Source of the DNA: an uncultured bacterium
Lineage (GTDB): Bacteria > Desulfobacterota_D > UBA1144 > Nemesobacterales > UBA2774
Length of the DNA stretch: 64,000 bases
Direction of reading: 5' to 3'
NCBI GenBank assembly: GCA_963825135.1
Contig: CAWGRW010000009.1
Location: 1,760,001 to 1,824,000, forward strand
The translations under genes and the position numbers were made by a program. Positions 37,437 to 41,391 of the stretch are shown piece by piece. Each line of letters opens with the position of its first letter. The stretch's first letter is position 1. Under the pieces are notes generated by a model. That model had not been told where the DNA came from and searched no databases. It worked only from the letters and a program-made list of their open reading frames with translations.

Positions 37437-38315
37437 CTATCCCGTGTACGAATTGATGAACTTCTCGTAATGGGCCCTGTGGTCCTGGCGTCCGATTTGC
37501 TGCTGAGCGGGCGGAAGCTCGGTCTTATTCAGGATAATCGATTCGAGGGAAGCGTGCTCTCCCTTGAATATTCTCCCGATCGGAATCTTCCCCTCCTCTT
37601 TCAGCTGGAGCGATCTCTGGAAGGCCATCCCGCGGTTAGTCGGGTCATAACCTTCTTCCTCGTCTATATTATAGACCCTGGCTCTCCATTCCCGGTGAGT
37701 ATCATAGTACGTTACGCATGGGGAAAGCACTTCGAGGAAAGCGAACCCCTTCTTGGACTGGGTATGATCGAGAGCCGCTTCCATCAGTTTCTCCAGCTGC
37801 TCGGGGTTGCCGCTGAAACCCCGCGCCAGGAATGTAGCCGACGGGAAGCTTAGGCCTAGCAGGATCGAATCCAGACCGGATTCGGCGTTGTCACGATAAC
37901 CGGTAGGGCTGGTTGGGGATATCTGACCTTTCGTCAGACCGTAATTGCTGTTGTTCATTACAATATAGGTAATGCTAGGGTTGCTCTTGAAGGTATGTAC
38001 GAGGTGGCCCGCTCCTATGGCATAGCCGTCGCCGTCCCCTCCCGCCGCGATTACGGTCAGGTCGGGGTTGGCCAGCTTGGCTCCTATTGCGGCGGGCAGT
38101 ACCCTCCCGTGCAGCGCGTGGTATCCGAAGCAGGGCAGGTTGTTTTGTATCGTTCCCGAGCACCCGATTCCGGCCAGCATCATAAGCTTGTACGGAGGTA
38201 TGCCCATCTTGTTCAAGGCCTTTTCAAGGACGCCCTGTACTGCGAAGTCTCCGCATCCGGCGCACCATATCGGTCTTGCCGGCGTAAAGGTTTTTGTACG
38301 GGTTTCTGTCGTCAC
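37437..38315 (-). CDS. korB: 2-oxoacid:ferredoxin oxidoreductase beta subunit
   Basis: WCAGCGD, GIGCSG, HGR.LP.A.G, GGDGDG TPP motif, YGLTKGQ.SPT. Confidence 0.9.
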   Translation of the reverse strand: MTTETRTKTFTPARPIWCAGCGDFAVQGVLEKALNKMGIPPYKLMMLAGIGCSGTIQNNLPCFGYHALHGRVLPAAIGAKLANPDLTVIAAGGDGDGYAIGAGHLVHTFKSNPSITYIVMNNSNYGLTKGQISPTSPTGYRDNAESGLDSILLGLSFPSATFLARGFSGNPEQLEKLMEAALDHTQSKKGFAFLEVLSPCVTYYDTHREWRARVYNIDEEEGYDPTNRGMAFQRSLQLKEEGKIPIGRIFKGEHASLESIILNKTELPPAQQQIGRQDHRAHYEKFINSYTG

Positions 38316-40114
38316 TGTAGCTTAGCCTCCTTTTTTCTCTTCTTTACTACGCTGCTTTCCCCTTCGAGGACCCTTCTTACCAGATCCACCGGCCTGAAAG
38401 GAATTCCGTCGTATCTCAAAATATTATTTATTTTATCCGGGTCCGCTCCCTGGTGAATCAGTATATGCGCCAGCTGGCCCTGCGCATTGAGCTCGACCAC
38501 ATAGACCCTGGTGCATTTGTCGATAAAGCCGAGTATGTCGTCAAGCACCGGCCAAATGGTTCTGGGCTGTAAATATCGGGTCTTGATGCCTTCTTTTTTC
38601 AGGTCTTCCATCGCATCTTGTATGACCCCGAATAAAGATCCGATCCCGATGAAACCGATCTTGGCGCTCGGGTCGCCGAAATGACGGGCCCCGGGCAATT
38701 CGTTTTTCGCGCCTTCGATCTTCCCCATACGCTTATCCATCATTTTTACGCGGTTTGTCGGGTCGGTGGAAACGAGTCCCCATTCATTATGCTCGTTCCC
38801 CGTGACCAGCGATAACCCTCCGGGCGTACCGGGCGCGGCGAACGGCGATATATTGTCATCCGTGAATTCGTATCGTTTGTAGAATCCGAGCTTTTCAATT
38901 TCTGCCGCTTCGACCCGCTTGCCCGGAACCGCGCTTACTCCGTCGAGGTCAAACGGTTTGACTGTCGCGACGTTCTGAGACAGCGCCTGGTCCATCGCCA
39001 GGAAAACAGGGCATTGATATTTATCCGCCAGGTTCGTGGCCTCCGCAGCCAGGTAAAAGCAGTCATCGGGGTGTCCCGGGGTAAGGACTATTCGCGGAAA
39101 GTCCCCGTGACCCCCGAAGACCATCAGGTTCAGGTCGCTCTGCTCGGGCTTAGTCGGCATACCCGTGCTCGGTCCCGAACGCTGACAGTCGACTATCACT
39201 AGCGGTATTTCTCCCGAACCGCAGTGCCCGACTCCCTCCTGCATCAGAGAGAAGCCGGGACCGGACGTGGCTACCATAGCCCTTGTTCCGGTGAGCGCCG
39301 CTCCGATAGCCATGTTAATTCCGGCCAGCTCGTCCTCGGTCTGTCTGGCGACTCCTCCACACCTCGGGAGCCACTTCTGGAGCGTCTCCAGTATCTCTGA
39401 AGAAGGGGTTATGGGGTAGCCGCAAAAGAACCTGCCCCCCGCAACCATGAATCCGAATGAGACCGATTCGTTGCCGGTGATCAAAAGGCGCGGCTCGGGT
39501 GTTGTCTTGTTTATTTTATATAGTCCTTCTCCTTCGTGTATGCCCATCTCGTCAGCGAGATGGAAGCCCAGGGCGAGCGCCTCGAGGTTGTATTCGAGAA
39601 TAACCTGTCCCATTCTCTGAAAGTGATTAACGAATGTCTCGCGCAGGGTTTCGTCTTCGAGGCCGAGCAGTCTCCCCACGACACCGAAAGCAATACTGTT
39701 CTTGTAGAGCTCTCTCCTCATCGTACGCATGGCTATCCTGTTGAACGGCGCGGAATATACCTTCGTGTCCTTAGGAAGAACGGACGGTACGGGGCCTCCG
39801 GAGTCGTCGTAGACCACTATGCTGTTCGAATCGAGCTGCCGCGCGTTTTTTTCAACGGCCTCTTCGTCCAGCGCGACCAGGAGGTTTATGTTGCTTCCTA
39901 TACAGTACCTCTCGCTGGCGGACGCCCTCATAGTCGCCGCCGCGTGTCCTCCCCTGATTCTCGATAAAACGTCTCTTTCCGTGTAAACGTTGAGCCCGTT
40001 CATACGAAGCATCTCTGCCAGCATCGTAATAACGGTTAGCGAACCATCCCCTCCCTGGCCCGCTACTATAACATTTACGTCCTCTAAAATAGGCCGGCTG
40101 TTGCTGGAACTCAT
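38312..40114 (-). CDS. korA: 2-oxoacid:ferredoxin oxidoreductase alpha subunit (gamma-alpha fusion)
   Basis: AGQGGDG, SRIRGGH, GYPITP, ATSGPGFSLM.E, QRSGPSTGMPTK. Confidence 0.92.
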   Translation of the reverse strand: MSSSNSRPILEDVNVIVAGQGGDGSLTVITMLAEMLRMNGLNVYTERDVLSRIRGGHAAATMRASASERYCIGSNINLLVALDEEAVEKNARQLDSNSIVVYDDSGGPVPSVLPKDTKVYSAPFNRIAMRTMRRELYKNSIAFGVVGRLLGLEDETLRETFVNHFQRMGQVILEYNLEALALGFHLADEMGIHEGEGLYKINKTTPEPRLLITGNESVSFGFMVAGGRFFCGYPITPSSEILETLQKWLPRCGGVARQTEDELAGINMAIGAALTGTRAMVATSGPGFSLMQEGVGHCGSGEIPLVIVDCQRSGPSTGMPTKPEQSDLNLMVFGGHGDFPRIVLTPGHPDDCFYLAAEATNLADKYQCPVFLAMDQALSQNVATVKPFDLDGVSAVPGKRVEAAEIEKLGFYKRYEFTDDNISPFAAPGTPGGLSLVTGNEHNEWGLVSTDPTNRVKMMDKRMGKIEGAKNELPGARHFGDPSAKIGFIGIGSLFGVIQDAMEDLKKEGIKTRYLQPRTIWPVLDDILGFIDKCTRVYVVELNAQGQLAHILIHQGADPDKINNILRYDGIPFRPVDLVRRVLEGESSVVKKRKKEAKLQ

Positions 40115-41391
40115 GTGGATGCTTTACCTCCGTTCGTGGGGTTATAGTCCTTATAGAGAGTCTTCGGATTGGTGTTTCCCATCTCGATTCTTTCCTGCAG
40201 CGTCGGCATCAGTGCCGGCAGGGGCTTATTTCTCTTCATGTTGCAAAGCCTTATTAAAAGATCCTTTGCCCGCGGTTCCGATTCGACCGGCACGATCTCG
40301 AACAGCCCGTCGTCGACCGCCGCCTGAAATGCCTTGTGTCCCGCCTCGGTCCTGACGGCGACGAAGGTCCACCCGTCGAGGCCTATTCCTCCGACCCCGA
40401 TGTCGGCGTGTTCCGCGGAGTAATCGAGGCAGTATAGGCATGCTGGCCGTGCGAACTGGTGAAAATCCTTTAATTTCATAATGATCTCTCGCCCGTCTCT
40501 GAGATTTATTATTACCTTTCCCTTTACATTCACATTCACTATGTCTATAGGCTCGACGTTAAGGGTCTCGGCTATGAATTTTATATGTTCGTGGGTGAAG
40601 CTCTCCGAGCAGAAAAGCCCTATTACGAGCGTTACGTTCTTCTGATACCACTTCGCCACTTCCAGACGGATGCTGCTGTACTGCTGCTGTCTGATACCGT
40701 CTACCTGGCACGGAACGCCCACAACGGCGATAGGATGTATGTCTTTTCTCATCGCCTCCGTGAGTGCGACGGTATTTGGCGAATAGGTATATCGGGAGCC
40801 GCTGCAGGAAATGATTTCCTCGGGCGTGGTAGCAAGCTTCTGAACGCCAATCTGAGGGTTTTCGGGCAGCACGTCGCCAAGCACGGCTCCCTTTATCGTC
40901 CCTTTTTTCAATGCATGTACCAGGAGCGCACTAGTAACCCCTCCGTCCTGTCCCCGTTTCAGAAGCTCGGTGTCTTTTGCCCTCGCAATCACGGCATAAT
41001 TATACGATCCGAATCCCTCGTCCAGCACAGGCTTTTTGAATCCGAGAAGCGTGTTAAGGTCTTTGTCCAGAGGACGCAGTACCGGGCATACGTCCGCGCA
41101 AAGCTCGCAGAACACGCAGGCGTCGTTTCTGGTGTCGACAGGGTGTTCGTCTTTATAGTCGAAAACGTCCGTAGGGCAGATCGTTACGCACGCCGCGCAG
41201 CCTACGCATTTGCCCGTGTCCACTATCTCGCGCATCAAGAAATCGACCGCCTTAAACCCTCCGCGGTTGATTTCCGATCTCCAGGCATAGGCCCACTCGA
41301 ACGGATCCACTCCCTCCTCCAGCATATGGTGGTATCGCTCCTGAACCGCTCGTACCAGCTTCTCATCTCTGCTGAATTCTTCATTGCTCAT
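40111..41391 (-). CDS. FrhB/FdhB/FpoF-family flavo-Fe-S protein with N-terminal 2x[4Fe-4S] domain
   Basis: CVGCAACVTICP, CVFCELCADVCP, QDGGVTSALL, VVGVPCQ, IGLFC, CLYCLDY.AEHADI.VG. Confidence 0.9.
   Translation of the reverse strand: MSNEEFSRDEKLVRAVQERYHHMLEEGVDPFEWAYAWRSEINRGGFKAVDFLMREIVDTGKCVGCAACVTICPTDVFDYKDEHPVDTRNDACVFCELCADVCPVLRPLDKDLNTLLGFKKPVLDEGFGSYNYAVIARAKDTELLKRGQDGGVTSALLVHALKKGTIKGAVLGDVLPENPQIGVQKLATTPEEIISCSGSRYTYSPNTVALTEAMRKDIHPIAVVGVPCQVDGIRQQQYSSIRLEVAKWYQKNVTLVIGLFCSESFTHEHIKFIAETLNVEPIDIVNVNVKGKVIINLRDGREIIMKLKDFHQFARPACLYCLDYSAEHADIGVGGIGLDGWTFVAVRTEAGHKAFQAAVDDGLFEIVPVESEPRAKDLLIRLCNMKRNKPLPALMPTLQERIEMGNTNPKTLYKDYNPTNGGKAST

Follow-up and report, generated by a model that had tools for sequence, protein, structure and literature searches.

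An FrhB-like iron-sulfur flavoprotein gene linked to korAB in uncultured bacteria: a predicted 2-oxoacid:F420 oxidoreductase

A stretch of 64,000 nucleotides (nt) from an uncultured bacterium (GTDB lineage Bacteria; Desulfobacterota_D; UBA1144; Nemesobacterales; UBA2774; assembly GCA_963825135.1, contig CAWGRW010000009.1, positions 1,760,001 to 1,824,000), referred to here as the window, carries a gene for an FrhB-like flavoprotein immediately followed by korA and korB, the two genes of a 2-oxoacid:ferredoxin oxidoreductase (OFOR). Why is a relative of an F420-reducing hydrogenase subunit encoded together with a 2-oxoacid oxidoreductase, and which acceptor receives the electrons? We propose, at a probability of about 0.6 and from sequence and structure comparison, that the three genes specify a 2-oxoacid:F420 oxidoreductase whose FrhB-like subunit is docked on KorAB and passes electrons irreversibly to F420. 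F420 is probably the final acceptor, be it reached through the docked subunit or through free ferredoxin. The operon has the following features.

41391-40111, minus strand: FrhB/FpoF-like iron-sulfur flavoprotein gene, 426 amino acids (aa); Pfam, PDB sequence matches, 51-sequence alignment, AlphaFold model and Foldseek
41083..41214, minus strand: part of the FrhB-like gene encoding its ferredoxin domain, with two CxxCxxCxxxCP motifs; predicted to take the place of the absent OFOR domain V, from the domain description in PMC5020499
41400..41405, minus strand: Shine-Dalgarno-like AGGGAG, 8 nt 5' of the ATG at 41391; sequence reading
40114-38312, minus strand: korA, alpha subunit of a two-subunit 2-oxoacid:acceptor oxidoreductase, 600 aa, domains III-I-II, YPITP, R312; TIGR03710, 6n2n_A and alignment
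38315-37437, minus strand: korB, beta subunit (domain VI), 292 aa, thiamine pyrophosphate (TPP) motif GDGD..NN, cluster Cys 18/21/52/200, Thr55

Conservation of the three-gene operon

The overlapping frames described in the initial annotation were borne out. All three genes lie on the minus strand, the stop of the FrhB-like gene overlaps the korA start in ATGA (40114-40111), and the korA stop overlaps the korB start in GTGA (38315-38312). The range given there, 38312..41391, covered the FrhB-like gene and korA but omitted korB, which reaches down to 37437. An in-frame GTG at 41400 was rejected as the start of the FrhB-like gene because it overlaps the ribosome-binding site and because the closest homologues are 426 aa long. 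A promoter and terminator scan gave no signal (5 and 4 sites, compared with 4.6 and 4.7 in shuffles).

The gene order was conserved across genome and metagenome loci. In all 26 genome loci korA lay directly 3' of the FrhB-like gene. The metagenome loci carry no taxonomy and were counted over the 80 best of the 219 confirmed hits. Of the 62 with 400 nt or more available, 61 have korA directly behind, down to 54% identity, and all 48 with 2400 nt or more have korB; in the only exception, L120, the FrhB-like gene itself is truncated. The overlaps go beyond coincidence. The frhB/korA junction overlaps in 61 of 65 complete triplets (54 by exactly 4 nt) and the korA/korB junction in 65/65, the other 41 of the 106 loci having been excluded for a cut or frameshifted gene. 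The triplets come from kin loci that form 17 clusters at 80% identity, and the independent count is therefore smaller.

Presence and loss were shared as well. An orthologue of the FrhB-like gene (at least 79%) occurs in 28 of the 120 host-phylum genomes, 27 of these also hold a korA orthologue (at least 70%), and korA occurs alone in none; a genus of 7 genomes (g5) is without both. In a gammaproteobacterial order (81 genomes) each gene was found in 33 genomes, 32 of them shared (one korB from a fragment), and both exceptions sit at contig ends. One locus (L153, G177:C201:3006-4633) is a decayed operon, with an FrhB-like gene shortened and carrying stops, korA gone and a stop in korB. Trees of the three proteins from 28 loci had no conflicting splits at support of at least 0.9. 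Such agreement can be obtained from kinship alone; it therefore demonstrates joint inheritance, not contact. Source names of homologues include Dadabacteria, Gammaproteobacteria, Acidimicrobiia, Bipolaricaulota and SAR324, and the relatives at 93-96% identity that carry a name belong to genomes of Dadabacteria type. The host is Dadabacteria-like. An in-frame TGA suspected in two korA-like matches was dismissed, as in the one that displayed TGA it is an ordinary stop.

The FrhB-like protein and its electron acceptor

Membership of the FrhB/FdhB superfamily is supported by both Pfam domains (FrhB_FdhB_N, 68.6 bits against a cut-off of 22; FrhB_FdhB_C, 126.9 against 23.3), the four cluster cysteines and the FAD motifs. 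The protein consists of N-terminal helices (residues 8-57), a 2x[4Fe-4S] ferredoxin domain (60-103), the FrhB core (about 125-390) and a C-terminal tail (386-413). The two CxxCxxCxxxCP motifs noticed at the outset lie at C62-P73 and C92-P103, and the FrhB core noticed with them was equally well founded. In an alignment of 51 sequences all eight ferredoxin-domain Cys are invariant, as are QDGG 148-151, RY 200-201, C228/C261/C318/C321 and K290-G291. Their counterparts in FrhB are 24QDGG, K75-Y76, C104/134/192/195 and 163IGKGK; the FAD, cluster and access-channel motifs of FrhB are described in PMC3930138 and PMC3591093. The channel region 163IGKGK reads NVKGK with K290-G291 retained, and the GxxCxE loop (G258-F265) is kept, with some loop positions variable among the 51 sequences. 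The FAD, cluster and channel motifs of FrhB thus correspond to invariant residues, apart from S209, which is Gly here, and the core is predicted to bind FAD and one [4Fe-4S] cluster. The N-terminal helices and the C-terminal tail are family-specific, being invariant in the alignment and missing from other bacterial FrhB-like clades.

Known F420 enzymes matched better than HCAR. A PDB sequence search returned FrhB at E 4e-43 and HCAR (5dqr) at 1e-9, which places F420 enzymes ahead by 30 orders of magnitude. The best Foldseek matches were 8rja_E (FwdI, E 5e-24) and 8riu_B (carbon monoxide dehydrogenase (CODH) zeta, 3e-23), with TM 0.66-0.67, followed by FrhB and Fsr, with HCAR lower. Sequence and fold comparison therefore agree that HCAR is much more distant. 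Three specific assignments were rejected. The FrhB of F420-reducing [NiFe] hydrogenase was dismissed on TIGR03289 (188 bits against 331.5) and because the NiFe hydrogenase large subunit (PF00374) was found in 0/10 genomes of the genus. FpoF/FqoF was dismissed on NF040616 (137.7/475 bits) and NF006808 (136.2/444 bits), with the gene consistently beside korAB and NuoF present in the host. HCAR/BciB was dismissed on the far weaker match to 5dqr and because bchH was not found in the 94% complete host genome.

These scores also bear on the idea that the protein is a dedicated KorAB subunit serving another acceptor, namely NAD(P)+, quinone through complex I in the manner of FpoF, or a small molecule as for HCAR and BciB. 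We consider this improbable. It gains from the position of the protein under all NCBIfam FrhB and FpoF cut-offs, and bacterial frhB-annotated genes also occur in photosynthesis clusters according to PMC9426454. The missing nuo neighbours do not help to decide the matter, since the complex I genes of the host are scattered, with nuoF and a nuoI-like gene each standing alone (C9:408392-409699 and C9:1076137-1076733). The margin by which F420 enzymes outscore HCAR argues the other way, as do a host NuoF for NADH entry, the failure to find bchH and a Pfam search that gave no NAD-binding domain. In addition, 25 of 71 distant loci have F420 biosynthesis (cof) genes within 7-8 kb of the operon; counted as clusters at 80%, this is 8 of 25.

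The host itself appears equipped to make and use F420. Its genome contains cofE, cofD, cofG, cofH, cofC and Fno above cut-off, so that the biosynthetic pathway for which a search had been advised (cofCDEGH) was found, along with 13 luciferase-like genes. The operon copy is its only FrhB-family gene. Of the 33 gammaproteobacterial carriers, 31 have a further, distantly related FrhB-like gene; the six such loci viewed in that order were all without korAB nearby. This stand-alone gene (L143-L147, L155; e.g. L147:3345-4787) encodes about 475-500 aa, occurs in most genomes of the order and is often beside luciferase-like genes; in G171 it directly follows cof genes.

It is conceivable that KorAB reduces free ferredoxin and that the co-translated FrhB-like protein is a soluble ferredoxin:F420 oxidoreductase, with no stable complex between them. 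Soluble FpoF has ferredoxin:F420 activity, and pyruvate-dependent F420 reduction in methanogen crude extract was traced to ferredoxin (both reported in PMC9012536). The host encodes a free 7Fe-type ferredoxin (C9:210947) that could be the shuttle. Further encouragement comes from another FrhB-like clade (30-33% identical), present in 14 genomes that belong to other families of the host phylum. Among the ten loci read, five, in some Dadabacteria families, end a run of cof genes (L034, L035, L041, L042, L043; e.g. L041:3374-8843), and three, in others, lie loosely near a four-subunit korDABC with citrate synthase (L037, L039, L040); this korDABC includes a ferredoxin subunit of its own. This clade, found only in families without the operon clade, is likely a stand-alone ferredoxin:F420 oxidoreductase, and it is another link among FrhB-like genes, F420 and OFORs. 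Against a free shuttle stand the fixed order, overlapping frames, joint loss and joint decay of the operon. Since a stand-alone FrhB-like gene coexists with the operon copy in those 31 genomes, the operon copy can be argued to serve KorAB specifically, and the invariant terminal extensions, missing from the stand-alone clade, suggest a fixed partner surface. We therefore regard the shuttle as rather unlikely.

The operon proteins form a monophyletic clade (0.999) in a midpoint-rooted tree of 103 FrhB-like sequences of 320-520 aa; it contained no characterised reference and did not include FrhB6, and the nearest sisters include proteins with Nitrososphaerota and Caldiarchaeum names. Two distant FrhB-like proteins (P0273 and P0170) have a winged-helix-like N-terminal extension, and one of them is fused to a domain resembling the glutamate synthase small subunit.

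Several observations weigh against a docked, F420-reducing complex. S209 of FrhB is replaced by Gly (S209-V210 corresponds to G335-I336); the F420 density from which this assignment was made was later ascribed to noise, which makes the contacts tentative (PMC3930138, PMC3591093). The AlphaFold model has a middling pLDDT of 72.6, and identity to solved F420 enzymes is only about 25-33%. FrhB-family proteins such as HCAR function without F420. Around the operon, cof genes were found in none of the 35 close loci, that of the host among them. Nearly all members of both groups have F420 genes (cofG in 118/120 host-phylum genomes, cofE in 75/81 of the gammaproteobacterial order), and co-occurrence within them therefore does not discriminate; moreover, G123 and G022 (83% complete) gave no match for cofG, and 2 of the 33 gammaproteobacterial carriers none for cofE. 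Fno is present in 108/120 host-phylum genomes, and zwf and pntB in 32/33 and 31/33 genomes of the family; F420 is thus reducible by way of Fno, and the KorAB route is not essential. The same zwf and pntB counts weaken the idea that supplying NADPH through Fno is its main purpose. The free ferredoxin of the host could serve as a shuttle, as noted. Linkage is evidence of a common pathway and not of a stable complex, and the metagenome counts rest on the 80 best of 219 confirmed hits.

KorAB active site and surrounding genes

KorA scored 598 bits against TIGR03710 (cut-off 482.75), and the closest solved alpha subunit is 6n2n_A from Magnetococcus marinus (E 7e-111). The alpha subunit has the III-I-II order, YPITP and the substrate arginine R312, the beta subunit has the TPP motif and four cluster Cys, and there is no domain V. 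KorAB thus belongs to the two-subunit OFOR family; the 2-oxoglutarate use that the names korA and korB imply is not cleanly supported by the active-site residues.

The residue in question is Lys49 of the beta subunit in Sulfolobus tokodaii (St) and Arg63 in M. marinus. At this position 46 of 65 operon members have Thr (Thr55 in the host) and 19 have Ser, compared with Lys or Arg in 4/4 solved betas and in 2/2 unlinked korB of related genomes. An assignment as a 2-oxoglutarate-specific Kor or 2-oxoglutarate oxidoreductase (OGOR) is not supported on this basis. In StOFOR1 the K49I exchange abolishes activity with 2-oxoglutarate and leaves that with pyruvate, while the KorAB of H. thermophilus is reported to be without this basic residue and yet 2-oxoglutarate-specific (PMC5020499). 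Alpha position 52, adjoining a pocket-lining Ser, is Arg in 64 of 65 members (Glu45 in 6N2N, Asn in St), and the equivalent of St Asp468 is an invariant Asn. Arg52 might compensate for the lost basic residue of the beta subunit. The residue numbers of Glu45, Ile46 and Arg63 in M. marinus OGOR were counted from alignments. The host korA is the only one in its genome, which also encodes an AceE-type pyruvate dehydrogenase (PDH) and SucAB; there was no other E1_dh match, and hence no branched-chain dehydrogenase was found. A small, branched-chain or otherwise non-standard 2-oxoacid seems somewhat more likely as the substrate than strictly 2-oxoglutarate, which should not be assumed.

Downstream of korB a gap of 265 nt is followed by two context genes, which the initial annotation left unmentioned.

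34358..37171, minus strand: sucA, 2-oxoglutarate dehydrogenase E1
33079..34341, minus strand: sucB, E2

These were rejected as operon members: they come behind the operon in 24 of 27 close loci, but in none of the 37 distant loci that were long enough to show them. The sucA-sucB pair (33079-37171) is without lpd, and an lpd-like gene sits with aceE-aceF (C9:2461983-2467932). Upstream of the FrhB-like gene is a divergent ABC transporter, which with Gld-like auxiliary and DUF4340-like proteins (by appearance) occupies 41771-45815 and is kept in close relatives. With these neighbours, the earlier remark that hydrogenase, formate dehydrogenase and Nuo genes are absent next to the operon was confirmed; as the nuo genes of the host are scattered, the lack of adjacent ones says little. 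The aerobic oxidase that had been mentioned is likewise present. A heme-copper oxidase cluster (SCO-like protein, subunits II, I, III and IV, heme A/O synthases by appearance) spans about 11870-17190, with subunit I at about 12926-14248, and two further subunit I genes elsewhere bring the genome to three. At 28302-28622 (minus strand) lies the gene of a small protein that has repeated GEQPGGDMPD..A motifs and is predicted to be secreted.

Proposed mechanism, precedents and implications

KorAB, whose catalytic motifs are intact, would catalyse the TPP- and CoA-dependent decarboxylation of a 2-oxoacid, with acyl-CoA and CO2 as products, as in its family. Electrons would leave singly, from the beta [4Fe-4S] cluster to the two ferredoxin clusters of the FrhB-like partner, then to the cluster of the FrhB core and FAD, and as hydride to F420 by analogy with FrhB, Fsr, CODH zeta and FwdI; four clusters would lie in the path. 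In two-subunit OFORs, which have no domain V, a pocket for external ferredoxin lies between domains III and VI (PMC5020499), and CODH zeta is anchored by its N-terminal ferredoxin domain (PMC11493965). From these two precedents we infer that the partner could supply the ferredoxin domain absent from KorAB and occupy that pocket. A complex prediction with alignments for KorA 10-375, KorB 12-232 and FrhB-like 8-415 gave a median of 0.38, with one control at 0.31, and was used neither way. The F420H2 produced could feed the luciferase-like reductases or Fno of the host.

Such a reaction would run one way. With the potentials in PMC9012536, about -500 mV and -340 mV, oxidation is calculated at about -31 kJ/mol. 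Reductive use, in which F420H2 drives carboxylation of acyl-CoA for CO2 fixation or anaplerosis, would be about 160 mV uphill by the same values. The operon contains no second electron acceptor module for bifurcation, and the host is an aerobe judging by its oxidases. That the closest solved alpha subunit is a reverse tricarboxylic acid cycle (TCA) enzyme of M. marinus, and that the host already possesses PDH and SucAB as oxidative enzymes, speak for this direction; all the same, we judge it very improbable.

The nearest precedents are archaeal. The zeta subunit of acetyl-CoA decarbonylase/synthase (ACDS)/CODH and FwdI of Ca. Ethanoperedens thermophilum (8RIU_B and 8RJA_E), the top two fold matches, share the N-terminal 2x[4Fe-4S] domain and the FrhB core, and each sits on a CO2-releasing low-potential dehydrogenase through its ferredoxin domain; Lemaire et al. 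2024 (PMC11493965) showed F420 reduction by this module on both CODH and Fwd. The FrhB-like protein is 27-28% identical to them. They come from an anaerobic archaeon, the partner is CODH or Fwd and not a TPP enzyme, and their complex and activity were demonstrated, whereas those of the bacterial operon are predicted. In ANME-1, FrhB6 occurs in pyruvate:ferredoxin oxidoreductase (PFOR) clusters, and Chadwick et al. 2022 (PMC9012536) proposed that it forms a system dedicated to oxidative F420 reduction. It too is an FrhB paralogue clustered with an OFOR, likened here by gene context; it differs in being archaeal and in its PFOR partner, and is itself a prediction. FpoF/FqoF have the same domain order, and soluble FpoF links ferredoxin and F420, but the operon protein is not in an fpo/nuo operon and has extra terminal extensions. 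FrhB of the hydrogenase and the N-terminal half of Fsr share the core fold, FAD and cluster ligands; by contrast, no FrhA partner was found in 10 genomes of the genus and the protein has no sulfite reductase domain and falls under the frhB cut-off. As for KorAB, the OGOR of M. marinus (6N2N) and OFOR1/2 of S. tokodaii (5B48, 5B46) share III-I-II plus VI, the missing domain V, YPITP, the substrate Arg, the Leu123-equivalent and the cluster Cys. They are (alpha-beta)2 enzymes that use free ferredoxin, and operon KorAB differs from them at beta Lys49/Arg63, alpha 52 and Asp468.

The operon is real and conserved, and appears to be a bacterial version of a known modular design with a predicted function. 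The initial interpretation is partly supported: the conserved gene order, the F420 pathway of the host, the retained FrhB motifs and the distance to HCAR all favour it, and a physical three-subunit complex with F420 as acceptor is predicted. Our literature searches, which left most subscription journals uncovered, found no biochemical report of the predicted F420-charging route and no paper on the bacterial operon. The initial statement that no characterised example is known holds to that extent for bacteria; the idea itself had been put forward for ANME-1 and the module shown on CODH and Fwd, so the bacterial variant is new and the principle is not. According to a 2021 review of F420, bacteria reduce F420 by way of Fno, Fgd and relatives; 'FrhB', 'FpoF' and 'pyruvate' do not appear as separate words in its main text (PMC8498797). 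A term search of a 2026 review of PFOR finds neither F420 nor FrhB (PMC13768988).

A fuller picture, which we put at somewhat under an even chance, is that of a stable three-subunit TPP enzyme in aerobic bacteria of several phyla that would use a central or amino-acid-derived 2-oxoacid to charge F420 directly. Its remodelled active site, with the Arg moved from beta-63 to alpha-52, would give a substrate range unlike that of known Kor enzymes. It would be a catabolic entry to F420 beside Fgd/Fsd, Adf and Fno, descended from an FrhB lineage of archaea and transferred as a single cassette, in many cases along with F420 biosynthesis genes. If the proposed function is correct, it would be a mistake to annotate these genes as a hydrogenase subunit or as a marker of the reverse TCA cycle. 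Three compact bacterial genes would make it possible to test an old question, namely whether OFORs need free ferredoxin to reduce F420, and might also provide an F420H2-regenerating system. In abundant uncultured aerobes rich in F420-type reductases, F420 would then have a direct tie to central carbon flow.

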